A stretch of 63,947 bases of DNA, filler included, from Sandaracinaceae bacterium (GCA_947483975.1; 3 parts of 3 records of this genome joined end to end with filler, not necessarily neighbours in it); one strand, 5' to 3'; positions 1 to 46,312 are shown, numbered from the whole stretch's first letter. Notes: generated by a model not told the origin, from the sequence alone. Made by a program: numbers and translations.

Positions 1-506
1 CACGGCGGCTCGCAGCGCCCCGCCCAGAGCCCGCGCCGCGCGAGGCGCGCCTCGTCCTCTGCGGGGACGTAGTCGGCTCCGTATTCGCGGTACGCGAACG
101 CCAAGCCCGAGCGCACGAGCCACGCGCCGAGGTCCTCGCGGCCCATGAAGCACTTGGCCACCGTGCGCCCGTGCACGTCGCTGCCGCCGGGCTCGCAGCG
201 CAGCTCTTGTCCCGCGATCTTCGCCGTGAGCGCGAGGCGCGCGTCCTCGCCCGCGAGCCGCAGCTGACCATGCGCGTCGGTGCAGGACTGCGAGCGCTCC
301 GGCGCGTCGACGGCGCTCATGCGGATGCGCACGCCGGAGACGACGAGGGTGTCGCCGTCGACGACGCGCGCGACGCCGCGGATCGTGCCCGCGGGGGCCG
401 GCTGCGCGCACGCCGACTGCGCGACGAAGAGCGCGAGCAGCGCAGAGGCGAGCGCGCTCACGCCGAGGAGCCGCGCGACCTGCGGGCCGCGGGTGAGCCG
501 GGTCAT
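1..506 (-). CDS. Secreted thermonuclease (SNase-like) family protein, 3' end truncated by window edge
   Basis: Not in the ORF track; translated by hand from ATG 506: MTRLTRGPQ..signal..VVDGDTLVVSGVRIRMSAVDAPERSQSC..DVHGRTVAKC..WLVRSGLAFAYREYGADYVPAEDEARLARRGLWAG. The DGDT, DAPE, GR and GLW motifs are typical of SNase. ATGA overlap with the upstream stop. Confidence 0.9.
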   Translation of the reverse strand, partial: MTRLTRGPQVARLLGVSALASALLALFVAQSACAQPAPAGTIRGVARVVDGDTLVVSGVRIRMSAVDAPERSQSCTDAHGQLRLAGEDARLALTAKIAGQELRCEPGGSDVHGRTVAKCFMGREDLGAWLVRSGLAFAYREYGADYVPAEDEARLARRGLWAGRCEPP

Positions 507-1822
507 AGGCCGCGCGGCGCGCAGCCCGTTCCGTCGAACGCGGGCACGACGAAGCGCAGCCGCTGCACGCCGAGCTCGCTGGTCGCGTCCCCGCGGAAGT
601 GCACGTCGAGCAGCACCTCCTGCGGCGTCGCGCGCTGCGGGACGAGGTCGGTGTGCACGTCCACGCGGAAGATCACGCGGGTCGCGCCGCGCACCCCGAG
701 AAAGCGCGCGTTCGCCACGTCGATGCCGTCGATGCCGCTCGCCGGCACTGCGCGCAGCGGGATGACGTCCTTGACGAGCGCGACCGAGTCGATGCCGTCC
801 ATCGGCGTCGGGTCGCTGAAGACGACGTCGACGTCGGTCGCGAGGCCCGCGCCCACCGTGCCGACCGCCTCGAGCACGCGCGCGACGAGGTCGGTGCCCG
901 AGCGCCCGATGCCGAAGACGAGCGGCTCACCGGCGCCGTCGACCGCGTCGGTGTCGCGGGCGAGCTGAAGCGCCGCGGGCGCGATCGAGGTGTCGCCGCC
1001 CGCCCAGAACGTGACGACGGGCATCCCGTGGGCGCGGAGCGCGGTGATCGCGTCGGTGTAGGACGCCGGCGTCGTGCCGAGCAGGCTCGGGTCGTAGGGG
1101 TCGGCGCCGCCGGGCCCGTTGTGCGAGGTGATGTCGGTGAAGATGAAGACGAGCGGCAGCACTCCCTCGCGGAAGCAGACGTGCCCGAAGGTCCCCGCGG
1201 GGCACGAGGCCGGCGGCACGTACTCCGAGAAGCCGCGGCGCCCCTCGCCCGTCGCGAGCTGATAGAGCGCCTCGACCTGCGCCTCGGGCCCATCGCTGCC
1301 GCCGTTCGCGACGAGCGTGCCGACGGCCGCCTCGAGCGTGTCGACGTCCGACGTCATCACCGTGCGCGTGCTGTACGGGGTGTCGCCGGTCGAGCCGTAC
1401 GGATCGACGGCGAAGTCGGCGAAGCTCGACACCGAGAAGCGCACGTCGGGGATCGCGTCCCGCAGCGCAGGCACGAGCACCGAGCGGATCTCGCGCTGCA
1501 GCTGGTCGATGACGCCGCTCATCGAGCCGGTGACGTCCACGACGAACGCGACGTCCGCGCCCGAGGTGCGCGCGTCGAGGGCGACCTCGACCGAGGCGAC
1601 GCCCGCGTCGACGTCGACGGGGAGCGGGATGCAGGGCGGGCCGCCGTCGAGCAAGCCCGCGTCGAGGTGTCCGAGGTCGACGCCGAGGTCGGTGCCGAGG
1701 TCGGCGCCGAGGTCGGGCGAGCCGCCGTCCGGATACTCGTCGATCAGGAGGCCGCTCTTGGCCCCGCAAGCCGACAGCAGGAACAACAGCCCCAGCGCGA
1801 GCGCATACGGTCGAGTAAGCAT
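503..1822 (-). CDS. vWA-domain lipoprotein
   Basis: Likely start MLTRPY (ATG 1822); lipobox LLSAC; D-L-G/D-A-G stalk; vWA MIDAS-like DVAFVVDVTGSM; GGSDGPE motif; FIFTD. Confidence 0.8.
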   Translation of the reverse strand: MLTRPYALALGLLFLLSACGAKSGLLIDEYPDGGSPDLGADLGTDLGVDLGHLDAGLLDGGPPCIPLPVDVDAGVASVEVALDARTSGADVAFVVDVTGSMSGVIDQLQREIRSVLVPALRDAIPDVRFSVSSFADFAVDPYGSTGDTPYSTRTVMTSDVDTLEAAVGTLVANGGSDGPEAQVEALYQLATGEGRRGFSEYVPPASCPAGTFGHVCFREGVLPLVFIFTDITSHNGPGGADPYDPSLLGTTPASYTDAITALRAHGMPVVTFWAGGDTSIAPAALQLARDTDAVDGAGEPLVFGIGRSGTDLVARVLEAVGTVGAGLATDVDVVFSDPTPMDGIDSVALVKDVIPLRAVPASGIDGIDVANARFLGVRGATRVIFRVDVHTDLVPQRATPQEVLLDVHFRGDATSELGVQRLRFVVPAFDGTGCAPRGL

Positions 1823-1945
1823 CTCGCCATCATCCCAGAGCGGTCGCGCGTTGCCCAGGGCGCGCCGAGGCTTTCCGCGTTTTGAGCCACAACGCGCGGG
1901 CGCGTCGTGATTCAATGGCCCTCGCGAATGCGAGTGAACGCTGAT

Positions 1946-12561: not shown

Positions 12562-13713
12562 TCAGGGCGAGCGTCGAGGGCTGCCGGAGACGCTCCCCGC
12601 GCTCGATGGACCCGGCGTCTTACTCACCGCGGCGGGCTCGGCGAGCGCGGCGCGATTGCGCCCGGCGTTCTTGGCGACGTAGAGCGCCCGGTCTGCGCGC
12701 GCGAGCCAGGCGGCAGCGCTCTCGCCCGGCACGACGGGAGCGACGCCGGCGGAGACGGTCGGCCGCACGACCGTGTCGCCAGCGGGCACGGCCAGCGCGT
12801 GCACCGCGGCGAGGAGCCTGTCGGCGAGCTTCATCGCGTCGCGCTCGTGCGCGCCTTGCACGACGATCGCGAACTCCTCGCCACCGTAACGCGCGACGAG
12901 GTCATCGCGGCGCAGGAACGCGCGCGTCAAGCACGCCGCCAGCGCCTTCAGCACGAGATCGCCGACGGGATGTCCGAGCGAGTCGTTCACGAGCTTGAAG
13001 TGGTCGATGTCGAGCAGCAGCAGCACCGAGGGGCGGCCGAAGATCGTCGCGAGCGTCGCCGAGCGCTCGAGCTGAGCGTCGAGCGCGCCGCGGTTCGGAA
13101 GCCCCGTCAGCGGGTCGTGCTCACCGCGCTTCTTCGCCTCGTCGAGCGCTTCGCCGAGCGCGTCGATGCGCTCGCCGAGCGACGCAAGCTCGCCACGATG
13201 CCGCACGCGGCGCTCCTGAATCGCCGACGCGAGCAGGTCGACGGTGGAGAGCGTCTCGCGGCGCAGATCGTCAGTCGAACCGCTCGAGGCGATCTCGCGA
13301 AGCCGCTCGAGCCGCTCGATCGCCTGCCCATCGGCCGCGCCATCGAACGCGGCGATCCGCGTCAGCCCCTGCACGAACGCGGAGACGACCGCGCGCAGGT
13401 CGCCGAGCGCGACGTCGACGTAGTGCACCTCATCGCTGCGCTGCCGCTCGAAGAAGCGCCGCAAGCCTCCGGGCCCGCTCTCGCCGCCCTCGGGAGGCGG
13501 CGTTCCGTCGAGCAGGTGCGCCGCCCAGCGCTCGCACATCGACGCGAGCGCGGCGGCCGAGCGATCGTCGGTGTCGAACGCCTGAGCGCCATAGAGACGC
13601 ACGAGCGTCGCGACGAGCGCGATGCTCGCCTCGGAAGGCCCTGCCTTCGTCGGCGCGGGCTGTTCCTGAGCCAAAACTGCCGTTGTGCTCGACTTTTTCA
13701 GGAAACCGAACAT
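12562..13713 (-). CDS. Diguanylate cyclase (cytoplasmic coiled-coil + GGDEF)
   Basis: Start MFGFLKK (ATG 13713, GAGG SD); DPLTGLPNR, DIDHFK.VND..GH..GD, I-site RRDD, active-site RYGGEEF, ALY.AK..GRN. Confidence 0.93.
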   Translation of the reverse strand: MFGFLKKSSTTAVLAQEQPAPTKAGPSEASIALVATLVRLYGAQAFDTDDRSAAALASMCERWAAHLLDGTPPPEGGESGPGGLRRFFERQRSDEVHYVDVALGDLRAVVSAFVQGLTRIAAFDGAADGQAIERLERLREIASSGSTDDLRRETLSTVDLLASAIQERRVRHRGELASLGERIDALGEALDEAKKRGEHDPLTGLPNRGALDAQLERSATLATIFGRPSVLLLLDIDHFKLVNDSLGHPVGDLVLKALAACLTRAFLRRDDLVARYGGEEFAIVVQGAHERDAMKLADRLLAAVHALAVPAGDTVVRPTVSAGVAPVVPGESAAAWLARADRALYVAKNAGRNRAALAEPAAVSKTPGPSSAGSVSGSPRRSP

Positions 13714-13730
13714 TAACGCCTCGGCGCCAG

Positions 13731-13758
13731 CAAACGGCGGGGCGCCGGGAGAACTTGA
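13731..13758 (-). promoter_or_regulatory. Sigma28 (FliA)-like promoter for the DGC gene
   Basis: Minus strand TCAAG(13758-13754)-N15-GCCGTTTG(13738-13731). Confidence 0.55.
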
Positions 13759-13804
13759 TAGCAAGCGCTCCGGTCCCCGCGTACTCGATCTGAGACGCCC
13801 CCCC

Positions 13805-13832
13805 TCAAGAGATCGGCCGGTCCTGCCGATGG
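13805..13832 (+). promoter_or_regulatory. Sigma28 (FliA)-like promoter for motAB
   Basis: TCAAG(13805-13809)-N15-GCCGATGG(13825-13832), close to the sigma28 consensus TAAA-N15/16-GCCGATAA; 23 nt before the motA ATG. Confidence 0.72.
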
Positions 13833-13855
13833 CCACCCCGAGGCTTTGAGAGAAC

Positions 13856-14716
13856 ATGATCGCCGTCGTCGGAGCAATCATCGTCATCATCGCCGTGCTC
13901 GGCGGGTTCACCGTCGCCGGGGGCAAGATCCCGGCGCTGTTCCACCTGTCCGAGTTCATCGTGATCTTCGGCGTCGCCGGTGGCTCGGTGATCATCTCCA
14001 CGCCCGTCAAGGTGATCAAGGCGACGGTCGCCAAGATCCTGCAACTCCTGAAGAAGAACCCCTTCGACAGGACGCTCTACCTCGACTCGCTGAAGCTCCT
14101 CTTCGAGTTCTTCCAGGTCGCGCGCAAGGACGGGCTCGTCGCCGTCGAGGCGCACATCGAGGAGCCGAGCAAGAGCGCGATCTTCACGAAGTACAAGACG
14201 GTCACCGCACAGCATCACGCGGTCGAATTCTTCTGCGACTCGATGCGCTTGGTGATCGCCGGCAGCGTGCCGCCGCATGACCTCGAGGCGATGATGGACG
14301 AGGAGATCGACGTCCATCACCACACCGAAACCCTCACCGTCGACACCGTGCAGAAGGTCGGCGACGCGCTCCCCGGCATCGGCATCGTCGCGGCGGTGCT
14401 CGGCATCGTCGTCACGATGGCGGCGATCTCTGGGCCCGTGGAGATCATCGGCGAGAAGGTCGGCGCGGCGCTGACGGGCACGTTCCTCGGCGTGCTCGCC
14501 GCGTACGGCTTCCTCAATCCGCTCGCGACCGCGATGGAGCACCTCAACGCGTCCGAGGCCCGGTACTACTACTTCCTCAAGGCGGCCGTCGTCGCGAGCG
14601 CCAAGGGCTTCCCGCCGATCGTCGCGGTCGAGTTCGCACGCCGTCAGATCTCGGCCGAAGCGCGCCCGACCTTCCAGGAGATGGAAGCCGCCTGCAGCAA
14701 GAAGCCGAAGGCCTGA
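13856..14716 (+). CDS. motA: Flagellar motor stator protein MotA
   Basis: Four TM helices; ARKDGLVAVEAHIE (rotor-facing Arg/Glu), ALPGIGIVAAVLG, GAALTGTFLGVLAAYG, PIVAVEFAR..RPTFQEME. Confidence 0.96.
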   Translation: MIAVVGAIIVIIAVLGGFTVAGGKIPALFHLSEFIVIFGVAGGSVIISTPVKVIKATVAKILQLLKKNPFDRTLYLDSLKLLFEFFQVARKDGLVAVEAHIEEPSKSAIFTKYKTVTAQHHAVEFFCDSMRLVIAGSVPPHDLEAMMDEEIDVHHHTETLTVDTVQKVGDALPGIGIVAAVLGIVVTMAAISGPVEIIGEKVGAALTGTFLGVLAAYGFLNPLATAMEHLNASEARYYYFLKAAVVASAKGFPPIVAVEFARRQISAEARPTFQEMEAACSKKPKA

Positions 14717-14719
14717 CGC

Positions 14720-15703
14720 GTGGCCCGCCCCTCCCGCGACACACCGATCATCATCCGCAAGAAGAAGGTGATGGGCCACGCCCACCACGGCGGCGCGTGG
14801 AAGGTGGCGTTCGCGGACTTCATGACCGCCATGTTCGCGCTGTTCTTGGTACTGTGGCTGGTGAACCAGAGCGCCGACGTGAAAGCCGCGATCGCGAACT
14901 ACTTCCAAGATCCGATCGGCTTCGAGCAAGGCGGCTCCCTTCAGCTCTCGATCACGGCGGCGTCGTCTGCGGAGTCGAGCCGCCAGCTCAACGACATCGT
15001 CGCGATTCGACGCCGCGCCACGCTCCGAACCGCTGGCGAGCGGATTCGACGTGCGCTGATGGGGAGCCCTGCGCTCGCGCAGATGGCCCGCAACGTCACC
15101 GTGGAGATGACCCCCGAGGGGCTCCGCATCGCGCTCACGGAGGACGAGGGCGCGACGTTCTTCGAGTCGGGCAGTCCGATGCTGGAAGATCGCGCAAAAG
15201 AGATCCTCACGGTCGTCGCGAACGAGCTCGCCACCCTGCCGAATCTGGTGCTGGTCGAAGGCCACACCGACGCTCGCCCGCTGCACCGCAGCGACGGCTA
15301 CTCGAACTGGGAGCTCTCGACGGATCGCGCTCATCAGGCGCGGCGCATCCTCGTCGGGCACGGCGTAGACGAGGCTCGCGTGCAGCAGGTTCGTGGCTTC
15401 GCCGATCGCGATCTGCTGGAGCCGAGCAACCCGCTCTCGCCGCGCAATCGGCGCATCACGATCACAGTGCTCGACATGCCGACTGAGGCGGCAGCCGGAG
15501 CCGACGGGGGCGTCGACGTGGTCGGGGCGAATGCGGGCGACGCAGCCGTACGCGCGGCGACGGACGCAGCTGCCGGCGTCGGCGACGGGGGCGCGCCGAG
15601 CGAAGCGGACAAGGACGCGGGCGCGGCGGCGGCGATGGGCGCCGCGGCGACGACCGACGCGGCGGTTCATGCGGCGTCGGACCGCGAGGGGGCCGCACCA
15701 TGA
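14720..15703 (+). CDS. motB: Flagellar motor stator protein MotB with Ala/Asp/Gly-rich C-terminal tail
   Basis: HHGGAWKVAFADFMTAMFALFLVLWL (proton-binding Asp); OmpA-like PG-binding domain EGHTD..NWELSTDRA..NRRI. Confidence 0.96.
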   Translation: MARPSRDTPIIIRKKKVMGHAHHGGAWKVAFADFMTAMFALFLVLWLVNQSADVKAAIANYFQDPIGFEQGGSLQLSITAASSAESSRQLNDIVAIRRRATLRTAGERIRRALMGSPALAQMARNVTVEMTPEGLRIALTEDEGATFFESGSPMLEDRAKEILTVVANELATLPNLVLVEGHTDARPLHRSDGYSNWELSTDRAHQARRILVGHGVDEARVQQVRGFADRDLLEPSNPLSPRNRRITITVLDMPTEAAAGADGGVDVVGANAGDAAVRAATDAAAGVGDGGAPSEADKDAGAAAAMGAAATTDAAVHAASDREGAAP

Positions 15704-16899
15704 GCCGCACACAGCCCACCGTCCTGATCATCGACGACGACGCCGATCTGCTGAAGATGACGGCGCTCGTGCTCGAGCGCGGCGGCGGTTGCCACGTCGA
15801 GATGGCTGAGAACGGTCAGCGCGGCGTGGAGGCTGCGCACGCGCTCGGCGCGAAGCTCGACGTCGTGCTCTGCGACTACTCGATGCCGGTGCTCGATGGA
15901 CTCGAGACCTGCCGCTTGATGCGCGCGGACCCCCTCCTCGAGGGCGTCGTGTTCGTGATGTTCACCGCGCACGCGGAGACGCAGCTCAAGATCCGCGCGC
16001 TCGACGCGGGCGTCGACGACTTCCTCGCGAAGCCAGTGGGGCAGGCGGAGCTCCTCGCCAAGACGCGCTCGTCGCTGCGCATGAAGGGTCTCTTCGACCG
16101 CGTGCGCGAAGAGCGCTCGCTCGCCGAGGCCCAGCACGCCGCGACGTCGCACAGCTTCGGTCAGCTCGTCGACCTGCTCGGGCACGTCGTGGAGCTGCGT
16201 ACTCCAGGGGCCGCCGACCGCGGAGCGCGGCTGGCTCGCGCGGCGAAGGCGATGGCGGAGCGGATGCAAGTACCGGCGGACCAAGCGCGCGCGCTCGAGA
16301 CCGCCGCGCGGCTGTTCGAGGTCGGCAAGCTGATCGACGCAGACGGCCCCGCGATAGACAGGTTCTCGGTGTCGCCGGTCCAGCGACGCGGCGTGCTCGC
16401 GGCGGCGGTGCTCGAGCGTGTGGTGGCGCTGCGCGCTGCGGCGGAGGTGCTCGGCTCCATCGGCGAAGCCTGGGACGGCACGGGCGGGCCCGATCGGCTG
16501 CGGCAGAGCGTGATCCCCTTCGGCAGCCGGATCTTGCGCGTGCTGATCGACTTCTTCTCGGAGCAAGACCGCACGAACGTGAAGAAGGCGGTCGAGGCGA
16601 TCACGACGCGCGCCGGCACGATCTACGACCCGCTCGTCGTCGGACATCTCGTGCAGCTCGCGCGCGCTCCGGAGGCTCGCGCATGGCGGGCTCACGGCGA
16701 CCGAGTGCCAGTGCGAGCGCTGGCCGAGGGCATGGTGCTCGAAGAGGACCTCCTCACCTCGTCGGGCATCAAGCTCGCCGCGAGCGGCACCCGCCTGACG
16801 CGCGGAGTGCTCGACTTGATCCAACGTCGCCACGAGAACGAGCCGTTCTTGCACGGCGCGGTCGTGAGACGCGGCACGGGCGGCGAGAGCGAAGGCTGA
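15700..16899 (+). CDS. Response regulator receiver + degenerate HD-GYP domain protein
   Basis: Intact REC domain (IIDDD, LCDYSMP, T, AKP). HD-GYP fold recognisable, but LHDIGK is LFEVGK and HHERWDGTGYP is IGEAWDGTGGP. ATGA overlap with motB. Confidence 0.85.
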   Translation: MSRTQPTVLIIDDDADLLKMTALVLERGGGCHVEMAENGQRGVEAAHALGAKLDVVLCDYSMPVLDGLETCRLMRADPLLEGVVFVMFTAHAETQLKIRALDAGVDDFLAKPVGQAELLAKTRSSLRMKGLFDRVREERSLAEAQHAATSHSFGQLVDLLGHVVELRTPGAADRGARLARAAKAMAERMQVPADQARALETAARLFEVGKLIDADGPAIDRFSVSPVQRRGVLAAAVLERVVALRAAAEVLGSIGEAWDGTGGPDRLRQSVIPFGSRILRVLIDFFSEQDRTNVKKAVEAITTRAGTIYDPLVVGHLVQLARAPEARAWRAHGDRVPVRALAEGMVLEEDLLTSSGIKLAASGTRLTRGVLDLIQRRHENEPFLHGAVVRRGTGGESEG

Positions 16900-16920
16900 G
16901 GGCCGACGACGACCGAGGGC

Positions 16921-17742
16921 TCAGCCGCCGGTCAACAGCTTGGCGCGCTCGTACTCGAGCTCGCCGCGGGCGAGCCACTCGTTGGTCAGCCCCGCGTCGA
17001 TCCCGATGGCGACGAGCGCCTCGGCGGGGGAGCGCGCATCGACGCGCTTCTCGGCCACCTGCGCGAGCACATCCGCCGCCGAGACGATGCGGGGGAGCAG
17101 TCGATCTCCCGGCTGGTGGTGATAGAGGCAGACCTCGGCGATCTCCGTAGGGAGCTGCCAGGTCGTGACGAGCGAGTGGCCCGCCGCCGCGTGCAGCGCG
17201 TCGACGATCTCGGACGCCTGCTCGTCGCCGCCCGCCGAGGGCATCCGCTTGGCGACAAGCTTCCAACATCGCGCGCGGCCGAGGTCGTGGAGCAGACCCG
17301 CGAGAAAGGCGTCCTCTGGATCGGCGGAGGCGACGCGGGCGAGCGCGCGAGCGAGCGAGGCAGTCGCCACGCCGTGCACGAAGTCGCGCGTGATCTCCCT
17401 CGCAAAACGGGGCACGTCGACGATCATCGACGCATAGGCCGTCTGAAAGAGCACGTCGCGCGCGGCCGAGCCGCCGATGTGCGAGATCGCGCGGCGCGGC
17501 GAGACATGCCGTGCCCCGCGCGCGTAGAGCGCGGAATTCGCCACCGCGAGGATGCGCGCCGCGAGAGGAGGATCGCTCTCGGCGAGCTTCACCGCCGCAT
17601 CGAGGTCGAGGTCGCTCGCGCGCGCGATGCGTAACGCCTCAGCCGCGCTGCGGGCCAGCTGCGGCAAATCGCTCGTGCCGCGCGCGAGATCGCGCTCGAC
17701 GAGGTCGAACAGACTGCCCGAGGGGTTCGTACTGACACTCAT
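16921..17742 (-). CDS. HDOD-domain protein
   Basis: LPQL, DPPLAARILAVANSALY, AISHIG, AFLAGLLHDLGR, WQLP..IAEVCLYHH; ATGA overlap with the upstream gene. Confidence 0.9.
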   Translation of the reverse strand: MSVSTNPSGSLFDLVERDLARGTSDLPQLARSAAEALRIARASDLDLDAAVKLAESDPPLAARILAVANSALYARGARHVSPRRAISHIGGSAARDVLFQTAYASMIVDVPRFAREITRDFVHGVATASLARALARVASADPEDAFLAGLLHDLGRARCWKLVAKRMPSAGGDEQASEIVDALHAAAGHSLVTTWQLPTEIAEVCLYHHQPGDRLLPRIVSAADVLAQVAEKRVDARSPAEALVAIGIDAGLTNEWLARGELEYERAKLLTGG

Positions 17743-18752
17743 TCCTGGTCGCCTTCCGTCGAGACGGGACGTGGAGGATAGCGGCTCGGACCCGCGACGA
17801 CGACCCGATTTCGCCCGGCTCGCTTTGCTTCGTAGAGCGCCGCGTCGGCGGCCTCGAGGAGCCGCCCGCGAGAGAGGCGCGCGCCCCCGACGGCATCGCA
17901 CGAGGCGACGCCGACGCTGGCAGTGACGACGGTGACGCCCGCGTCGGGCGGCATTTGAATCTCGTGGATCGCTTGCCGGTAGCGCTCCCCGATCGCGCCC
18001 GCGACCTCCGGGCGTGCCCCGCGCGCGACGACGAGAAATTCCTCGCCGCCATAGCGGGCCGCGAGGTCCCCACGGCGCGCGCGCGCACCAAGCCGCGCGG
18101 CGACGGTCTGCAGCACACGGTCACCCGCGCCGTGACCGTGCGTGTCGTTCACCACCTTGAAGTGATCGAGGTCGAGCATGACGACCACGACCGGCTCGCC
18201 GCTCTCGAGCGCGTCATCGAGCGCCTCGTCGGCGGCGCGGCGATTCGCCAGCCCGGTGAGCGGATCGCGCAGCGCCGCGTCACGCAGCGAAGCGCCGCGC
18301 TTGCGCACCCACGCGAGCAGCTCGCGCTCGCGCCGATTGCGCAGCTGCACGTGCACGCGCGCGCGCAATTCCGCGAGGCGCGACGGCGTGACGATGTAGT
18401 CGTCGGCCCCGCACATCAGCCCGCGCACGACGCTCTCCTCGTCGCCGAGGCCGCACGTGACGAGGATGATCGGCGTCAGCTTCATCTCGTCCATCATGCG
18501 CAGGTCCGCGCAGATCTCGAGGCCCGACGAGCCGGGCATCAGCACGTCGAGGATGACGAGGTCCGGTGGACGCGCGTGGATGTGCGTGAAGATGTGCTCG
18601 CCGTCCGGCAGCAGATCGACCTCGTGGCCCTCGGCCTCGAGCACGCGCGCGAAGAGATGACGTCGCGCCTCGTCGTCGTCGACGACTAGGACGCGGCGCG
18701 CGCGGTCGGGCGGCGGCGGGATGCTGAGCGCTAGCGGGATGGACGAAACCAC
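17739..18752 (-). CDS. PleD/WspR-like response-regulator diguanylate cyclase (REC-GGDEF)
   Basis: VVDDD..ILDVLMP REC domain; DPLTGLANRR, DLDHFK, RRGD I-site, RYGGEEF. Confidence 0.93.
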   Translation of the reverse strand: MVSSIPLALSIPPPPDRARRVLVVDDDEARRHLFARVLEAEGHEVDLLPDGEHIFTHIHARPPDLVILDVLMPGSSGLEICADLRMMDEMKLTPIILVTCGLGDEESVVRGLMCGADDYIVTPSRLAELRARVHVQLRNRRERELLAWVRKRGASLRDAALRDPLTGLANRRAADEALDDALESGEPVVVVMLDLDHFKVVNDTHGHGAGDRVLQTVAARLGARARRGDLAARYGGEEFLVVARGARPEVAGAIGERYRQAIHEIQMPPDAGVTVVTASVGVASCDAVGGARLSRGRLLEAADAALYEAKRAGRNRVVVAGPSRYPPRPVSTEGDQE

Positions 18753-19408
18753 GTGGGCTCCGGGGGCGACGGTGCAGGGTGCGCGTAATAGTAGCCCTCC
18801 TGCAAGTCGCAGCCGAGTTCTGCGAGCGCCTCGGCCTCCGCGAGCGTCTCGATTCCTTCGCCGACGACGAGCGCGCCCGAGTCTCCGCAGAGAGAGACGA
18901 GCGCCCCGACGAGGCGCTGCTTGCTCGAGGACGCGTCGAGGTCCCGCACGAGCGAGAGGTCGAGCTTGACGAGCTCAGGCGACAACGCCGCGAACGTCGT
19001 GAGCCCGGCCGAGCTCGCGCCGAGCCCGTCGAGCGCGATGCCGACGCCGGAAGTACGGAGCAGCTCGAGCTGCCGACGGCACGCTGCGAGGTCGCTCCCC
19101 GCGGTGCGTTCGCTTAAGACGAGCATCAGCTGCGAGGCCAGGCGCTTGGTCTTCAGCTGCGCGAGCAACGTGTCGTCGAAGAGTTCCTGGGTCGTCGGGC
19201 TGACGAGGAGCTTCGTCGCGGCGCTGCGGTCGTCGAGCACGCCAAGCGCGGACGCGAGCTCGGCGCGCGACACCCAGGCGTAGACGGTCTGCGCCGCGAA
19301 GCTGACGATCGGCCGATACGCCGTCGAGCCCAAGCGCCGTACCGCCTGAGCGGACGGCGCTCGCGGCGGAGGGGCCGCGGCGCGAACGATCGACAAGCGG
19401 GGTCCCAT
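18731..19408 (-). CDS. Stand-alone degenerate EAL-domain protein
   Basis: YRPIV, VKLDLSLVRDL, VGEGIET, CDLQEGYY retained; the EAL motif is absent and DDFGTG reads DGLGAS. Confidence 0.8.
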   Translation of the reverse strand: MGPRLSIVRAAAPPPRAPSAQAVRRLGSTAYRPIVSFAAQTVYAWVSRAELASALGVLDDRSAATKLLVSPTTQELFDDTLLAQLKTKRLASQLMLVLSERTAGSDLAACRRQLELLRTSGVGIALDGLGASSAGLTTFAALSPELVKLDLSLVRDLDASSSKQRLVGALVSLCGDSGALVVGEGIETLAEAEALAELGCDLQEGYYYAHPAPSPPEPTWFRPSR

Positions 19409-19430
19409 CTACGTCGTGCCTCTGACCGCA

Positions 19431-19458
19431 GGAGCGGCTGAATCGAGCGCTTCCTTGA
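19431..19458 (-). promoter_or_regulatory. Sigma28-like promoter for the EAL / REC-GGDEF / HDOD operon
   Basis: Minus strand TCAAG(19458-19454)-N15-GCCGCTCC(19438-19431). Confidence 0.5.
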
Positions 19459-19519
19459 GCAGGAACGACCCCGAGACAGACATAAGAGACAGTGCTGCGC
19501 AAGTTGTGTACGAATCCGC

Positions 19520-19547
19520 TCAAGCCTGGCGGCCATGCGACCGAAGA
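19520..19547 (+). promoter_or_regulatory. Sigma28-like promoter for fliC
   Basis: TCAAG(19520-19524)-N15-ACCGAAGA(19540-19547). Confidence 0.6.
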
Positions 19548-19616
19548 CATGGGTGCGACACGATGTCGGCCGGATGCCAAGACGGCGACCGGGAACCTCA
19601 AGGAAGAGAGATCACC

Positions 19617-20474
19617 ATGGCCCTCAGTATCAAGACGAACGTCGAATCCCTCACCGCCCAGCGCAACCTCTCGGCGACCTCCAAGGCGCTCGCGACGAAC
19701 TTCGGTCGTCTGTCGAGCGGCTTGCGCATCAACACCGCCGCGGACGACGCGGCCGGCCTCGCCATCAGCGAGAAGATGAAGGCCAACATCCGCTCGATGT
19801 CCCAGGCCGAGCGCAACGCGAACGACGGCATCTCGCTCCTGCAGACGGCGGAGGGCGCGCTCAACGAAAACGCGGGCGTCCTCGTCCGTATGCGTGAGCT
19901 GGCGATGCAGTCCTCCACCGACACCGTCGGCACCAACGAGAAGGCCCTGATCCAGAACGAGTTCACCCAGCTGACCTCGGAGATCAACCGCATCGCTCAG
20001 GTCACCGAGTTCAACGGGACCAACCTCTTCGCGGCTGCCGCCTCCACGGGCTTCGACTTCCAGGTCGGCATCGGCACGTCGGCGTCCGACAAGATCAACA
20101 CCGGTGCCGTCACGAGCATGTCCTCGGCCACGTACGGCGCCGCCGGTTCCACGGGCGGCACGGATCTCACCGCCCTCTCGGTCGCCTCGAAGACCGCGGC
20201 CGTCGCGGCCCTCACCGCGATCGACACCGCCATCGCGGCCACCTCGTCCTCTCGCGCAACCTTCGGCGCGATCCAGAACCGGCTGTCGGTCACGGTTTCG
20301 AACCTCCAGAGCGCCCGTGAGAACCTCAGCGCCGCCAACTCGCGTATCCGCGACGTCGACGTCGCCGAGGAGAGCGCGGCCATGACCCGAAACAACATCC
20401 TGATGCAGGCCGGCGTCTCCGTGCTGTCTCAGGCCAACCAGTCCCCGCAGGCGGCCCTCAAGCTGCTCCAGTGA
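19617..20474 (+). CDS. fliC: Flagellin (285 aa)
   Basis: MALSIKTNV..RLSSGLRINTAADDAAGLAISE..RNANDGISLLQTAEGAL; C-terminal GAIQNRL..ENLSAANSRIRDVDVAEE..ILMQAGVSVLSQANQ..LKLL; SD AGGAAGAGAG. Confidence 0.98.
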   Translation: MALSIKTNVESLTAQRNLSATSKALATNFGRLSSGLRINTAADDAAGLAISEKMKANIRSMSQAERNANDGISLLQTAEGALNENAGVLVRMRELAMQSSTDTVGTNEKALIQNEFTQLTSEINRIAQVTEFNGTNLFAAAASTGFDFQVGIGTSASDKINTGAVTSMSSATYGAAGSTGGTDLTALSVASKTAAVAALTAIDTAIAATSSSRATFGAIQNRLSVTVSNLQSARENLSAANSRIRDVDVAEESAAMTRNNILMQAGVSVLSQANQSPQAALKLLQ

Positions 20475-20478
20475 TCTG

Positions 20479-20626
20479 ACGCGCGGGGGTCGGGCGCGCT
20501 CGCCTGACCGCTCCTCCCCCCTGGGAAGCGCGGCTCGGCTGAGCCGCCCGACCTCCCCGCGCGTGTCCTCTCGCTCTCGCTTTTCTCCTCCTTTCTGCTT
20601 CTCTTCCGCCTCCTCCTCTCCGCCCC
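20479..20626 (+). terminator. Long stem-loop plus polypyrimidine tract between fliC and fliD (putative terminator/attenuator)
   Basis: Arm acgcgcgggggtcgggcg (20479-20496) pairs with cgcccgacctccccgcgcgt (20545-20564); a C/T-rich tract follows. Confidence 0.45.
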
Positions 20627-20636
20627 GGAGCCCCTC

Positions 20637-21998
20637 ATGGCCATCGCGTCGTTCAGCGGACTCGCCTCGGGCATCGACTCAGCGGCCCTGATCTCGGGCC
20701 TCGGCGCGGTTGCGCGGCAGCCGATCACTCGCCTGCAGACCAGCCAGACGACGCTCAAGACCCAGGCGGCCCGCGTCGACGACCTCTCGTCGAAGCTCAC
20801 CGCGCTCGCCACAGCGGCGCGCGCGCTCGACACGACGGACGAGGTCCTCGCCACCAGGGCGACCTCAGCCAACTCGAGCGTAGTCAGCGCCTCGGCGACC
20901 ACGGGCGCAGCGACGGGCTCCTACAACCTCCACGTCACCTCGCTCGCCAAGGCGACGCGCGCCTATACGGACCCGGTCGGCGCGGCCGATCAGGCGGGCC
21001 TCTTCGGCACGGGCACGCTCTCGCTGACGATCGGCGGGACGACCACCGACCTCAGCATCAGCGCCTCGGACACGCTCAGCTCCGTCGCCGACAAGATCAA
21101 CAACGCCGGCATCGGCGCCTCGGCGGGGCTCGTCTACGACGGCGCCAACTGGCGCCTCGCCGTCAACGGCACGGACACCGGCACGCCGAACGCCGTCACC
21201 TTCGGCGAGTCACCGGGGCTGACGCTCGGCCTCAACAAGCCCGCCAACCTCATTCAGCCCGCGGCCAACGCGGCGTTCGAGATCGATGGGCTCCCCGTCT
21301 CGAGCGCCTCGAACACGGTGACCACCGCGATCAACGGCGTCACGCTCGGCCTCGCCGGCGTGTCCGACGGGACGGCGACGACCGTCGTGCGGGTCGACCG
21401 CGACTCGGCGGCGCTCCAGACCAAGGTCAGCGCCTTCGTCAGCGCCTACAACGCCGTGATGAACGCGATCAGCTCCGAGACGCCGCAGGGCGGCATCGTG
21501 AAGGCCGGCGCGCTCGCGGGGGACTCGACGCTCCGAAACGTCCAGTCGGCGCTCCGGTCGACGGTCGGCAGCACGGTCGCCGGGCTGACGGGCGCGTACA
21601 CGAACCTCGCGTCCATCGGGATCTCGCTCGACCGCTACGGCACGATGTCCCTCGACACGGCGAAGCTCTCGACGGCGACTGCCAAAGACCCTGCGGGCGT
21701 GTCCGCGCTCTTCGCCTCGCAAACCGGCGCCACCGGCGTGATGCGCTCGCTGACGACGACCGTCGATGGCTACGTCACGAGCGGCACGGGCGTGCTCGCC
21801 ACGAAGGCGAAGAGCCTGCGCGACCGCGCGACGGGCCTACAGAAGACGATGGACGCCATGGAGCTGCGCGTCACGAAGTACGAGGACACGCTGAAGAAGC
21901 AGTTTGCGTCGCTCGAGTCCCTGATCTCCGGCATGAACTCCCAGAGCGCCCAGCTCGCCAGCGTCATCGCCAGCAACACGAACAACAACAACAAGTAG
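20637..21998 (+). CDS. fliD: Flagellar filament cap protein FliD
   Basis: SFSGLASGIDSAALI N-terminus; SASNTVTTAINGVTL, FVSAYN, LAGDSTLR, LASIGI, LKKQFASLESLISGMNSQ. Confidence 0.95.
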   Translation: MAIASFSGLASGIDSAALISGLGAVARQPITRLQTSQTTLKTQAARVDDLSSKLTALATAARALDTTDEVLATRATSANSSVVSASATTGAATGSYNLHVTSLAKATRAYTDPVGAADQAGLFGTGTLSLTIGGTTTDLSISASDTLSSVADKINNAGIGASAGLVYDGANWRLAVNGTDTGTPNAVTFGESPGLTLGLNKPANLIQPAANAAFEIDGLPVSSASNTVTTAINGVTLGLAGVSDGTATTVVRVDRDSAALQTKVSAFVSAYNAVMNAISSETPQGGIVKAGALAGDSTLRNVQSALRSTVGSTVAGLTGAYTNLASIGISLDRYGTMSLDTAKLSTATAKDPAGVSALFASQTGATGVMRSLTTTVDGYVTSGTGVLATKAKSLRDRATGLQKTMDAMELRVTKYEDTLKKQFASLESLISGMNSQSAQLASVIASNTNNNNK

Positions 21999-22047
21999 CC
22001 GAGCGCGCTCGGCTTCGCCCCCCACCGCCCCTCCACGAGGTAAGGCC

Positions 22048-22422
22048 ATGTCGTTCGCCGTCGCCCAGTACCAAAACGCCCGGGTAGATACCATCTCCCC
22101 CGTGCAGCTCGTCGTCGCGCTGTACGACGGCGCGCTCCGCTTCCTGCGGACCGCCGCCCTCGCGATCGACGACAACGACGTCGCCGCCAAGGGCGTGGCG
22201 CTCAACAAGGCGCACGCGATCATCACCGAGCTGATGGTGACGCTCGACCACGAGCAGGCCCCAGAGCTCTGTGGGCAGCTCGAGGCGCTCTACTCGTTCG
22301 TCCTCGACCGCATCGCGAAGGCGAACGCGGACCGCAACATCGAGATGATCGACGAGGCGGTACGGGCGCTCTTGCCACTGCGCGACGCCTGGGGACAGCT
22401 CGCGCGGGCGGGGCGGCCGTGA
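22048..22422 (+). CDS. fliS: Flagellin export chaperone FliS
   Basis: QYQ..ISPVQLVVALYDGALRFL..KAHAIITELMVTLD..LEALYSF..LRDAW. Confidence 0.95.
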   Translation: MSFAVAQYQNARVDTISPVQLVVALYDGALRFLRTAALAIDDNDVAAKGVALNKAHAIITELMVTLDHEQAPELCGQLEALYSFVLDRIAKANADRNIEMIDEAVRALLPLRDAWGQLARAGRP

Positions 22423-22766
22423 GCGCGACTGACCTCGAGACGCTGGTGGCCGCGCTCGAGGACGTCCACCTCGACGTCGAGACCGACGAGGTCGAGGGGC
22501 TGACGCTGGGGCTCGAGCGGCGTCAAATGATCCTCGATCAGATCCAGAAAGCTGACGGCTCAGGCCTCCTTCCCGCGGCGAGACTCGCCCTCCGGGAGCG
22601 CCTCGAGGCGGTGCAGGCGCGGGACGCGGCGGTGCTCGCCGGGCTGGTCCAGTGGCGAGCGGAGATCGCTGAAGCGCTTGAGGATTCCGGCCGGGCGAAG
22701 ACGGCGGTGAGGGGCTATCGGGCGACGGCGGATGTGCCGGAGAGCGGGACCCGTCGGACGGCGTGA
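22419..22766 (+). CDS. FliT-like helical protein
   Basis: 115-aa helical ORF overlapping the fliS stop, in the usual fliT position; LERRQMIL and C-terminal AVRGY. Confidence 0.5.
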   Translation: MSATDLETLVAALEDVHLDVETDEVEGLTLGLERRQMILDQIQKADGSGLLPAARLALRERLEAVQARDAAVLAGLVQWRAEIAEALEDSGRAKTAVRGYRATADVPESGTRRTA

Positions 22767-22811
22767 GTGAGGCGCGAAGGCTTGGGCACGGCGGTTGCTT
22801 TGACCCCGCTC

Positions 22812-23525
22812 ATGCCCACGACCAACCGCAGCTTCCCAGCCTCCGAACAGACCGTCACCGACGAGCGCGACCCGCAGCAGCGAATCCTGCGCGCGCTCAA
22901 CCGTACGCGCGCTGAGCTCGAGATCGTGCTCGGCGAGGTCACGAACGCGCGGACCGTCGAGCTCCGGCTCGAGCTCGTCGATCGCGCGCTGCGCCTGCAT
23001 TTCCTCGGCTCGCGCCTGAGCCGCCGGCTCTCGATGCTCGGCGAGGGCGGGCTCCTCGCGCTCTCGGCGATCCGCGAGACCGACGTCGCGTCGATCGTGC
23101 GTGAGTGCGCCGCGGAGGTCGCGCCCGAGTGCGGACGTCGGCAGATCTCGCTCGACCTGCGCCTCGACCCCGGGCTGCGCTCGACCTGGCTCGACGCCGA
23201 GCAGCTCTCGGAGGCGGTGCGCTGCTTGATCGACAACGCGATGGAGGCGCTGTCCGAGCAAGGCACGCTCTTCCTCGAGGCGCGGAATGACGCGCACGGG
23301 CTGTCCATCCTCGTGCGCGACGACCGCGGCGAGCGTGACGAAGCGGCGCCCCATGGGAGCGAGCTCTACGTCGCGGCGCGCTTCGCCGAGGCCCTCGACG
23401 GAGAGCTGATGCGTCATCCGGCGGGCCTCCTCGCCGACGTCGTGACCGAGACGATCTTGCGCATCCCGGTCACCCGGGCGAGCGAGCTGAGCGAAGCGAC
23501 CGCGCCGCGCTCGAACGCGGCATGA
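22812..23525 (+). CDS. Degenerate histidine-kinase-like ATPase (HATPase_c) protein
   Basis: DAEQLSEAVRCLIDNAMEA (N-box) present; G1 reads VRDDRG and G2 reads HGSELYVA; no clear phosphoacceptor H-box. Confidence 0.65.
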   Translation: MPTTNRSFPASEQTVTDERDPQQRILRALNRTRAELEIVLGEVTNARTVELRLELVDRALRLHFLGSRLSRRLSMLGEGGLLALSAIRETDVASIVRECAAEVAPECGRRQISLDLRLDPGLRSTWLDAEQLSEAVRCLIDNAMEALSEQGTLFLEARNDAHGLSILVRDDRGERDEAAPHGSELYVAARFAEALDGELMRHPAGLLADVVTETILRIPVTRASELSEATAPRSNAA

Positions 23526-24118
23526 GCTGCGCGCACGACATTCTCGCGGGGAGCCGCGCATTTCGCCCCACGACGACGGCGCCCTCCAAGGTCACTGCCC
23601 GCGGCCTGATGGTGCTCGCCCTGCTCAGCGCGGGGGCCATCACGCTGCTGCCCGCCGGCAGCGCGGCGGCGCAGACCCGCGGCTACGGCGTCACGCTGGA
23701 AGGCGGCAGCGGGCTCTCGATCGGGACCGGCTCGCAGACGGCGGTGCTCGAGCGCACCCCGATCTTCGTCGACGTCGGGCTGCGCACGACGCGCAGCGAT
23801 GTACCGACGCTGGCGTGGGGCGGCGCGCTGCGCGTCGAGGTCGACGGCCGAGTGGGAGTGGGCGGCGTCTTCCGGGCGGAGCTCGTGACGCCGCTCGGAC
23901 CGCTGTCGCTGCGCGCAGGGATCGGCGTACCGTTCTTCTTCGCGCCCTATGTGCTCGTCGGCCTGGAAGGCTCCCTCACCGTGCGCTGGCCAGCGACTGC
24001 CCCGGTCGCGGTGACGGCGTCGGTGCTGATCGACGCGTACTTCGCGGGCAGCGATCTGCCGCACGACGCCGCGCTCTTCATGACGAACGGAACCCTCGGT
24101 GTCGACCTCCTCTTCTGA
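23522..24118 (+). CDS. Hypothetical exported beta-barrel-like protein
   Basis: Signal peptide (alternative start ATG 23609); amphipathic strands; C-terminal F. Confidence 0.55.
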   Translation: MSCAHDILAGSRAFRPTTTAPSKVTARGLMVLALLSAGAITLLPAGSAAAQTRGYGVTLEGGSGLSIGTGSQTAVLERTPIFVDVGLRTTRSDVPTLAWGGALRVEVDGRVGVGGVFRAELVTPLGPLSLRAGIGVPFFFAPYVLVGLEGSLTVRWPATAPVAVTASVLIDAYFAGSDLPHDAALFMTNGTLGVDLLF

Positions 24119-42526: not shown

Positions 42527-43261
42527 TCAGGGGGGCGGGGGCGTCGGGGGAGCGGCGTGTCGGTGGTACGAGAGGCAGCAGCGGAAGCCGGCGATCGGCT
42601 CCTCGGGGCGGCGCCAGCCACCGCCCGGCTCCGTGCACGTCGCGGAGGAACCCGGCTGAAACGCGCTGCCGCCGCGCAGGCCGCGCAACCCGCCGCCGCT
42701 GCCCTCGTCGTCGAGCCACTCGATCGCGTTGCCGCTGAGGTCGAAGACGCCCTCGGGGGAGCGGCACTCCGGGAAGGTGCCCGACGCGACGACGTGCACG
42801 GCGTTGAGGTCGTCGGTGGACTCGGCGATGTTGCAGCGGCGAGGGATGTGCGTGTCGCCGTAGGGGAATTTGCGCGCGCGGTCAGGGCCAGCGCAGGCCT
42901 TCTGGAACTCCTCGAGCGAGCAGAGGCGGAGGTCTGCCGCGCGGCAGGCGCGCTCGGCGTCGAACCAGGTGAGGTCGCTCGCCGCGGGCGCGTGGGTCGC
43001 GGGCACGGCCTTGCCGTGTTCGATGCGCGCCTCGTGGCGGTCCATGCACGCGGAGGTGCCGGGCACGGCGACCATGCGCGCTGGGCATCGTTCGGTCAGT
43101 GGAGCAGGAGCGGGCGCCGCGGGCGCGCCCTTCGAGCCGCAGGCACCTAGCAGCAGCCCGAGCGCGAGCAGTCCGAGCGCGAGCAGCCGGCCGAGCCTGG
43201 GCGGTCGTTCGGCGCCGGGCACCAGCGGGCGCCCGGGCAGCGGACTCCTCAGTACGCCCAT
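42527..43261 (-). CDS. FGE-sulfatase (SUMF1-like) domain lipoprotein
   Basis: Lipobox LGAC; CMDRHE, LTWFDAERAC, RLC..EE..AC, FPYG, GVFDLSGNAIEW, RGGS, GFRCC. Confidence 0.88.
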   Translation of the reverse strand: MGVLRSPLPGRPLVPGAERPPRLGRLLALGLLALGLLLGACGSKGAPAAPAPAPLTERCPARMVAVPGTSACMDRHEARIEHGKAVPATHAPAASDLTWFDAERACRAADLRLCSLEEFQKACAGPDRARKFPYGDTHIPRRCNIAESTDDLNAVHVVASGTFPECRSPEGVFDLSGNAIEWLDDEGSGGGLRGLRGGSAFQPGSSATCTEPGGGWRRPEEPIAGFRCCLSYHRHAAPPTPPPP

Positions 43262-46200: not shown

Positions 46201-46312
46201 CCGGCGAGCATACCGGGCTCCGGCCTCCCGCGGGGAATGTGTGACGCGAATTTTGCGCGGGTCGCGCGGGCTGCGCATTCTCATTTCGGCGCGCGTCGCC
46301 TACGCTGCCGCC

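Follow-up and report, generated by a model that had tools for sequence, protein, structure and literature searches.

Classical myxobacteria glide by means of stator homologues. Within the same phylum, Myxococcota, Anaeromyxobacter dehalogenans 2CP-C carries a large, single flagellar cluster of 55.7 kb with motA, motB and fliC, and its sister strain K swims (Thomas et al. 2008, PMC2330069). In the 2CP-C cluster, chemotaxis genes are embedded between motAB and the fli genes, the cluster is reported without fliT and flgA, and an ancient deltaproteobacterial origin is argued for it (PMC2330069). For uncultured members, “flagellar assembly” has been listed for Myxococcota metagenome-assembled genomes (MAGs) (2021 preprint), and a later study describes marine MAGs with highly expressed flagellin genes, Myxococcota and Bdellovibrionota being pooled (2025, PMC11937823). 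Elsewhere flagella appear only in passing or in reference lists (PMC11821767, PMC10576062, PMC11613949, PMC10196010, PMC13055281), and a literature search returned no paper devoted to flagella in Polyangiales and none linking the stators of Gemmatimonadota and Myxococcota. The present work concerns a flagellar stator and filament locus in a 63.9-kb stretch of DNA (hereafter the window) from a Sandaracinaceae bacterium (GCA_947483975.1), in which motA, motB and a response regulator gene of a type typical of Gemmatimonadota appear to be housed in a flagellar cluster native to a Polyangiales-like lineage.

A well-known case of a foreign stator is reportedly that of Shewanella. Flagellar motors can run with a stator of foreign origin, and stator genes are known to be gained by lateral transfer (PMC9039648); the cases described there mostly add a second stator to give a hybrid motor. 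Flagellated Myxococcota being already known, the new point here is the mosaic with a putative Gemmatimonadota-type cassette of stator, regulator and promoter. Compared by its published description (PMC2330069), Anaeromyxobacter belongs to another class and comprises cultured soil and sediment strains, while the window has genes of cyclic di-guanosine monophosphate (c-di-GMP) type, a fliT-like gene and a stator of Gemmatimonadota type.

The window is composed of three contigs joined by artificial spacers, with the flagellar locus on contig 1 (1-24334). Because GC content is about 0.70 throughout, reading frames were picked by GC content at third codon positions (GC3), followed by Pfam and NCBIfam profile scans, the latter covering 21 window proteins. 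The strong bias towards G/C-ending codons recorded in the initial annotation was recovered, GC3 lying between 0.85 and 0.95 in flagellar genes and neighbours alike, and the VWA-domain protein reported from the flagellar contig is present there (Table 1). A MotA scan of species-representative genomes led to G001, a long-read MAG labelled “Polyangiales bacterium”, whose 791,775-bp contig C3 (L001) aligns with contig 1 nearly end to end at 71-79% nucleotide identity. From FadL2 to the last open reading frame (ORF), 17 of 19 genes are collinear between the two at 61-80% amino acid identity; of the remaining two, FliT gives a weak match and the EAL gene is absent from G001. Contig 2 maps to G001:C3:694-705 kb (77-83%), about 32 kb from the place of contig 1, and contig 3 to G001:C2:25-35 kb (70-82%). 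Since they map collinearly to G001, the three contigs belong together as one coherent bin, that of a G001 relative. G001 itself has 18 matches to MYXO-CTERM, three of them on C3, a signal which we take from the model's description to be Myxococcota-specific and which gave no match in one Gemmatimonadales genome, one Bryobacterales genome and 14 control genomes. Judged by synteny, contig 1 is from a Polyangiales-like lineage of Myxococcota and not mis-binned, in keeping with the Polyangia-like placement first proposed for it.

The genes motA, motB, fliC, fliD, fliS and the fliT-like gene, spanning 13856-22766, are intact as had been stated, with no internal stops; all six products pass Pfam models, and MotA and FliS also pass NCBIfam ones. 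MotA is of true flagellar type, again as first proposed, reaching 340.9 bits on TIGR03818 (MotA1) against an equivalog cut-off of 303.8, with the Pfam domains MotA_N (E=4.9e-23) and MotA_ExbB (E=1.1e-9) and the residues R90, E98 and P222, presumably in E. coli numbering. MotB harbors MotB_plug (57.6 bits) and an OmpA-like peptidoglycan-binding domain (54.2 bits), keeps the transmembrane Asp in FADFMT, which we take to be D32 of E. coli, and scores 210.5 on the best NCBIfam MotB model, below its cut-off of 277.

The relationships of these two proteins set them apart from the rest of the locus. MotA is 79-80% identical to that of G001; the next 12 matches are all from Gemmatimonadota (60-68%), after which come Acidobacteriota and a single MAG of Chloroflexota (34-54%), and 17 other genomes of G001's order reach 38-45%. 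MotB is 74% identical to that of G001, 47-55% to Gemmatimonadota loci and 38-40% to the relatives G053 and G030. MotA1-type genes were found at E<=1e-20 in 3 of 60 G001 relatives (G001 at 79%, the others at 44% and 39%) and in 18 of 200 genomes of the order, G001 included, while G001 has one MotA_N-type gene only. In a MotA+MotB tree of 25 rows, window and G001 group together (100/100) within Gemmatimonadota, in a 13-row clade supported at 100/99; the 12-row subset without the deepest Gemmatimonadota row is supported at 100/98, and Gemmatimonadota form one clade in none of 200 bootstrap trees. A tree of this kind had been suggested in the initial annotation, and it places the stator with Gemmatimonadota, not with the Myxococcota relatives. 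The contig L044 of a Candidatus Limnocylindrales MAG (G070, Chloroflexota) has MotA, MotB and FlgI all within Acidobacteriota clades, a pattern that corresponds to transfer of a whole flagellar system or to a mis-binned contig.

Taken gene by gene, MotA, MotB and the response regulator are closest to Gemmatimonadota, whereas the HDOD protein, the receiver-GGDEF protein, FliC, FliD and FliS are closest to the relatives. FliD has matches in 20 of the 60 relatives (63% in G001, 36-44% or 183-341 bits in the 19 others), and reaches 64-108 bits in five of five Gemmatimonadota. The FlgI of G001 clusters with relatives (13 in the clade, SH-aLRT 99), and a branch of length 2.07 sets this group well apart from five Gemmatimonadota; the FlgI Pfam score is about 250 bits in Gemmatimonadota versus 416 in G001. 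Its FlhA is 65-71% identical to 11 relatives versus 46% to Gemmatimonadales; FliF, FlgI, FlgK and FlgH reach 29-37%, and all six proteins compared, with FlgG, lie at 29-46% to the Gemmatimonadales genome G002. In the metagenome contig L143, from a member of this sub-lineage, the site of the stator block is taken up by an ABC exporter. The long-resident flagellar system envisaged by the initial annotation thus stands for filament, cap, P-ring and export gate, which are native in type, but not for motA-motB, which group with Gemmatimonadota.

The third member of the block is a response regulator (RR), with a 4-nt overlap between its start and the motB stop. It adjoins the 3' end of motB in G001 and in Gemmatimonadota alike, with 38-42% full-length identity to the latter, and among the 60 relatives it is matched at E<=1e-40 in G001 only. 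In an alignment of seven orthologues the receiver residues D13, D14, D59, T94 and K111 are invariant. The HD-GYP domain has lost both of the signatures expected of a phosphodiesterase of this family: in 7 of 7 orthologues the HD dyad has become FE (window and G001) or HE (Gemmatimonadota), and G-G/S/M/Q-P stands where GYP would be expected. The domain is therefore probably non-catalytic and the protein not a phosphodiesterase, since these positions are lost in all seven; a phosphorylation-controlled binding protein is more likely.

Upstream of the block, a motif TCAAG-N15-GCCGAT ends 25 nt before the motA start codon and is the only exact match in the window. In G001, and likewise in all of the Gemmatimonadota loci examined (7 of 7), motA has TCAAG-N15-xCCGAT in front of it, equally far from the gene and with a spacer that is similar, and the motA-motB-RR order is likewise common to all seven. 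Further copies with one mismatch lie just upstream of the GGDEF gene (13758-13733, minus strand) and upstream of the EAL gene (19458-19433, minus strand). The FliA (sigma-28) consensus we take to be a -35 element TAAA/TCAAG and a -10 element GCCGATAA, separated by about 15 nt, and a fliA gene is present in G001. The motif before motA seems to be a candidate FliA-type promoter, which the late flagellar sigma factor of the host could read.

Comparison with neighbouring lineages on both sides brings out the mosaic. Three relatives, G053, G030 and G029 (loci L139-L141), likewise have c-di-GMP genes and motB-motA beside fliC-fliD-fliS-fliT, with FliC of the same type at 54-60%, FliD at 40-42% and FliS at 52-54%. 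They differ in stator type (MotA at 39-44%, or a weak MotA_N match) and in strand, which is opposite, and none has a gene for a receiver and degenerate HD-GYP protein behind motB. The Gemmatimonadota loci L002-L013, on the other hand, share the three genes in the same order and orientation, the degenerate HD and GYP positions and the motif about 30 nt before motA, but their remaining flagellar proteins are of another, divergent type, and the window's HDOD gene is not theirs (32%, versus 40% to G053). With its single MotA_N-type stator, G001 looks like a case of replacement, unlike most of those in PMC9039648, and it also differs from them in that the response regulator and promoter would have travelled with the stator.

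We hold it probable that the locus as a whole is a native Polyangiales-like flagellar cluster carrying a stator cassette derived from Gemmatimonadota, the cassette being best read as acquired by horizontal transfer. Several points weigh against this explanation. The assignment of the sampled order and phylum to Polyangiales and Myxococcota rests on the label of L001 and on MYXO-CTERM, which was not found among the 21 window proteins in the NCBIfam scan, nor was any other Myxococcota-specific match. The promoter motif with one mismatch occurs three times in the window where 1.01 would be expected, and 9 of 100 shuffles reach three, so that the whole-window count is not significant; before fliC, no such motif with up to one mismatch per half was found in the window, G001/L001, L142, L143 or L140, although one is present in L139. 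Rod, hook, ring and export genes are predicted for the window organism from three relatives and are not seen in the window itself, and dN/dS, the ratio of nonsynonymous to synonymous substitution rates, was estimated here with a method that is rough at the GC3 concerned. Among metagenome runs carrying the locus, the GGDEF/motA junction is bridged only by one from the study of the possible source, and two runs of another study (P3) have loose ends near it, at 13159 and 13946. Lastly, the approximately unbiased (AU) test did not reject Gemmatimonadota as a clade with window and G001 as sister (p=0.106), and because of this the tree by itself does not prove which way the transfer went; the MotA sequence set was obtained by a search seeded with six query peptides, in which a closer donor in another phylum may be missed.

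These last two points, together with an HDOD gene beside motAB in both phyla, are what favours a reverse transfer from Polyangiales to Gemmatimonadota, or a third, unsampled donor to both, which we consider unlikely. The stator block is found in 12 Gemmatimonadota species genomes spanning deep branches versus 1 of 200 genomes of G001's order, window and G001 are nested in Gemmatimonadota in all bootstrap trees, MotA of Gemmatimonadota does not stand out as an outlier against the FlgI clade of that phylum, and the exporter of L143 occupies the block's site. Because topology and distribution point the same way, the transfer would have run from Gemmatimonadota into the host lineage.

Less credit still is due to the idea that the genes are remnants, or have been repurposed for secretion, surface sensing or as a gliding stator like AglRQS, in an organism that does not swim. 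The stator homologues of gliding myxobacteria count in its favor, as do split or stop-containing flgI genes in some relatives (G151, G155, G096). Against it, all genes of the locus are intact, and dN/dS between window and G001 (NG86, rough at a GC3 near 0.9) is 0.23-0.30 for MotA, MotB and RR and 0.33-0.53 for FliS and FliD, compared to 0.27-0.49 for four flanking genes, values similar to those of the neighbours which suggest that the flagellar genes are maintained. Moreover, MotA exceeds the cut-off of the flagellar equivalog model, no structural class is missing from G001 (flagellin, cap, hook, rings, switch and FliA are all there), and in a lake-water habitat swimming would be useful.

That the entire flagellar system came recently from Gemmatimonadota, as the likeness of MotA, MotB, RR and promoter might suggest, is barely credible given the low identity of the six G001 core proteins to G002, the FlhA identity to relatives, the long branch splitting the FlgI groups and the weak FliD in five of five Gemmatimonadota. 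Mis-binning of contig 1 from an ordinary flagellated taxon, e.g. one of the Gemmatimonadota, which supply all of the best non-Polyangiales MotA matches and from which composition cannot separate it because both phyla are GC-rich, is extremely improbable, as the whole 20 kb is collinear with the interior of a 792-kb long-read contig bearing three MYXO-CTERM genes, contigs 2 and 3 likewise align to G001 (contig 2 to the same contig of it), both flanks of the foreign block match Polyangiales relatives best, and FliD, FlgI and FlhA are of the relatives' type.

The favoured explanation, a native cluster with an acquired stator, draws on relatives for the rest of the flagellum. Within the window the structural classes are limited to stator, filament, cap and chaperones, and none of the rotor genes fliG, fliM and fliN is found there, while all classes are present in G001, where FliG, a FliM-like protein and FliN are encoded 27-36 kb from the orthologous motA. 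After the homologous locus, G001:C3:757-789 kb carries CsrA-FliW, FlgL, FlgK, a FlgN-like ORF and FlgM, then FlgJ-like, FlgI, FlgH, FlgA, FlgG, FlgF, FliA, FlhG, FlhF, FlhA and FlhB, further on FliR, FliQ, FliP, FliO, FliN, FliM-like, FliL, FlgE and FlgD, and at the end FliI, FliH, FliG, FliF, FliE and FlgC, followed by a sigma-54 activator. FliJ was not identified in G001, and FlgB and FliK are tentative suggestions, a Flg_hook domain lying within the FlgD ORF. In L142 and L143, metagenome contigs from other relatives at about 73% nucleotide identity, a homologue of the window's last gene is immediately followed by csrA-fliW, flgL, flgK and flgN, and L142 continues with flgM-flgJ-flgI-flgH-flgA-flgG. 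By synteny, contig 1 would break off where the hook-associated and basal-body genes begin.

Some features of this region stand apart from the question of origin. CsrA and FliW are normally encoded by two adjacent genes, and a fused regulator-antagonist pair would be unusual; here a single 200-aa ORF encodes both (CsrA at residues 1-52, FliW at 75-187), conserved over 197 residues in three genomes (L071:1356-1958, minus strand, in G001; L142:7983-8573; L143:9805-10395). A DDE transposase lies past the flagellar cluster and sigma-54 activator at G001:C3:790246-791724, the extreme end of the contig, and probably explains where the assembly of C3 stops. Outside the flagellar cluster, G001 has a second FHIPEP protein (42% to FlhA; C6:7362-9371) and a second YscJ-type gene (C9:60444-60947), and FlhA paralogues at 38-43% occur in relatives with and without FlgI (G016, G026, G034, G013, G017 and others); these probably belong to non-flagellar type III systems known from Myxococcus.

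Table 1. Coordinates of the features in the window, in order of position, with the matches or motifs by which they were recognised.
Feature	Position	Strand	Basis
VWA-domain protein	503-1915	-	profile scan, contig 1
GGDEF diguanylate cyclase	12562-13713	-	Pfam GGDEF, E=2e-40; GGEEF at residue 384 of the 12562-14034 ORF
Candidate sigma-28 (FliA)-like promoter motif, TCAAG-N15-GCCGAT	13805-13830	+	ends 25 nt before the motA ATG
motA, flagellar stator A subunit, Gemmatimonadota-like	13856-14716	+	MotA_N, MotA_ExbB, TIGR03818
motB, stator B subunit	14720-15703	+	MotB_plug, OmpA
RR: receiver, degenerate HD-GYP, conserved C-terminal module	15700-16899	+	Pfam Response_reg, HD_5 (56.3 bits)
HDOD-domain protein, native type	16921-17901	-	Pfam HDOD, E=9.6e-30; likely start Met54 = 17742
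Receiver-GGDEF diguanylate cyclase, native type	17739-18752	-	Pfam, E=1.2e-41; GGEEF at residue 235
Degenerate EAL-domain protein	18731-19408	-	Pfam EAL, profile positions 72-236 only
fliC, short flagellin, 285 aa	19617-20474	+	Flagellin_N, Flagellin_C; ORF from 19416
fliD, filament cap	20637-21998	+	FliD_N, FliD_C
fliS, flagellin export chaperone	22048-22422	+	PF02561, E=1.6e-34; TIGR00208, 100 bits vs 53.75
fliT-like chaperone	22419-22766	+	PF05400, 34.9 bits vs cut-off 29.5
Conserved uncharacterised protein, faint histidine-kinase-ATPase-like stretch	22767-23525	+	HATPase_c, E=0.027, below cut-off
Conserved uncharacterised protein, last complete gene of contig 1	23522-24118	+	positional conservation
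Artificial spacer, contig 1/contig 2	24335-24434	.	N44-TTAATTAATTAA-N44
Artificial spacer, contig 2/contig 3	48609-48708		N44-TTAATTAATTAA-N44

Five genes of c-di-GMP signalling type, which the initial annotation did not mention, are interspersed with the flagellar genes: RR and the four on the opposite strand on either side of the stator block (Table 1). The first GGDEF gene lies in a 490-aa ORF extending to 14034, which overlaps motA on the opposite strand; its likely start is Met108 (13713), and its product is 66% identical to the positional orthologue in G001. The receiver-GGDEF protein is 78% identical to G001, 46% to G053 and 35% (partial) to Gemmatimonadota. Both copies retain the GG[DE]EF active-site sequence, by which both diguanylate cyclases look active. 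In addition to the identities given above, the HDOD protein is 63-65% identical to L142 and L143 from residue 55 on. The EAL protein, matched in L142 and L143 (37%), has no EAL motif at the catalytic position and LDGLGAS where DDFGTG is expected, both of which a phosphodiesterase should have, and is probably non-catalytic.

The true start of fliC is the ATG at 19617, within an ORF of 19416-20474, preceded by the Shine-Dalgarno-like GGAAGAGAG. The flagellin consists of the conserved N- and C-terminal regions only and is 73% identical to that of G001, 54-60% to G053, G030 and G029, and 76-82% to L142 and L143. In the middle of the gene (window 19650-20050), dozens of differences and small indels were seen relative to contigs of the metagenome runs X6 and X7, while flanking genes differ little; the exposed region of the flagellin thus differs from one lake population to another. 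The fliT-like protein, 58-59% identical to L142 and L143, has no NCBIfam match. Of the two genes that follow, neither has a family above threshold in Pfam or NCBIfam (22767-24118). The first, with weak NCBIfam sensor-kinase matches at residues 98-186, keeps its position in G001 (61%), L142 and L143 (66-67%), and the second in G001 (78%), L142/L143 (69-77%) and G053 (41%).

Further observations concern contigs 2 and 3. Contig 2 encodes two large cysteine-rich proteins of secreted type, both on the minus strand, one with EGF/teneurin-like repeats which is cut by the contig start (24387-26456) and one with five MopE-type metal-binding repeats and a beta-propeller (43249-46284). On contig 3, window 62100-62780 has some 25 counterparts in G001 at 67-73%, among them the sigma-54 activator which ends the flagellar cluster, indicative of a large NtrC-type activator family, typical of myxobacteria.

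With regards to habitat, three studies contribute six metagenome runs, from lake water or freshwater, in which the locus stretch was found, beyond four rows that may be the source; none of the runs listed for 13800-22800 is of RNA, a result that is neutral as to expression. Contigs of these runs cover all 30 bins of the stretch; they are short and no single piece spans the whole, and those from a study other than that of the possible source bridge motA-motB, motB-RR and RR-HDOD-GGDEF. Such a planktonic life would make swimming plausible; a flagellated dispersal stage, as first proposed, is likewise hypothetical.

The initial annotation started from classical myxobacteria being regarded as non-flagellated; for Myxococcota this premise is not supported, and the locus is less unusual than had been assumed, given the Anaeromyxobacter cluster published in 2008 and the distribution of the P-ring gene. 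FlgI, which to our knowledge has no injectisome counterpart, is present in 21 of 60 G001 relatives; for the order the count is 72 of 200 genomes and for the phylum 164 of 401, based on samples of species genomes, many of them incomplete MAGs. Among those sampled, more than one third of the order and about two in five Myxococcota hence carry the gene. A second flagellar clade within the order (G033, G035, G036, G050, G057, G059; FlgI SH-aLRT 99) has FlhA at 51-55% to G001 versus 65-71% in the main clade, and from these separate FlgI and FlhA clades at least two flagellar lineages are therefore deduced. Split or stop-containing copies of flgI (G155:C108:17975-18639, G151:C76:51591-52727, G096:C314, G069:C3:1942416-1943445) are a possible sign of ongoing flagellar loss, or assembly errors.

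We propose that the locus is the filament-and-stator end of a native flagellar cluster, that its host is a Polyangiales-like member of the Myxococcota which lives in lakes and is uncultured, and that genes for hook, rod, rings, export, switch and sigma-28 probably lie directly beyond the end of contig 1, as synteny with the three relatives would have it. A cassette of three genes, motA-motB-RR, with its own sigma-28-type promoter would have entered the common ancestor of this organism and G001 from Gemmatimonadota and would now serve as the stator, its FliA-type promoter placing its activation under the late flagellar regulator of the host. Motor activity is probably linked to c-di-GMP and two-component signals through the two diguanylate cyclases, the HDOD protein, the degenerate EAL protein and the HD-GYP protein, the last of these phosphorylatable without being catalytic; control of the motor by c-di-GMP would correspond to that in many bacteria. 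A bolder proposal, offered tentatively and as rather doubtful, is that motA-motB-RR and the FliA-type promoter make up a self-contained, transferable stator cassette. RR would then be a dedicated partner of the stator, switched by phosphorylation and perhaps sensing c-di-GMP, acting as a brake or recruitment factor on MotAB and not on the switch complex. The promoter would be readable by any host FliA, and the cassette would have displaced a resident stator across phyla, from Gemmatimonadota to planktonic Polyangiales.

On the favoured explanation the locus would be a case from nature of a flagellar motor evolving by modules, in which a native rotor and filament work with a stator, regulator and promoter from another phylum. 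The conserved, uncharacterised response regulator, always located behind motB, is a candidate motor regulator. For the Myxococcota more broadly, motility goes beyond gliding and pili, and swimming is probable for planktonic freshwater members.

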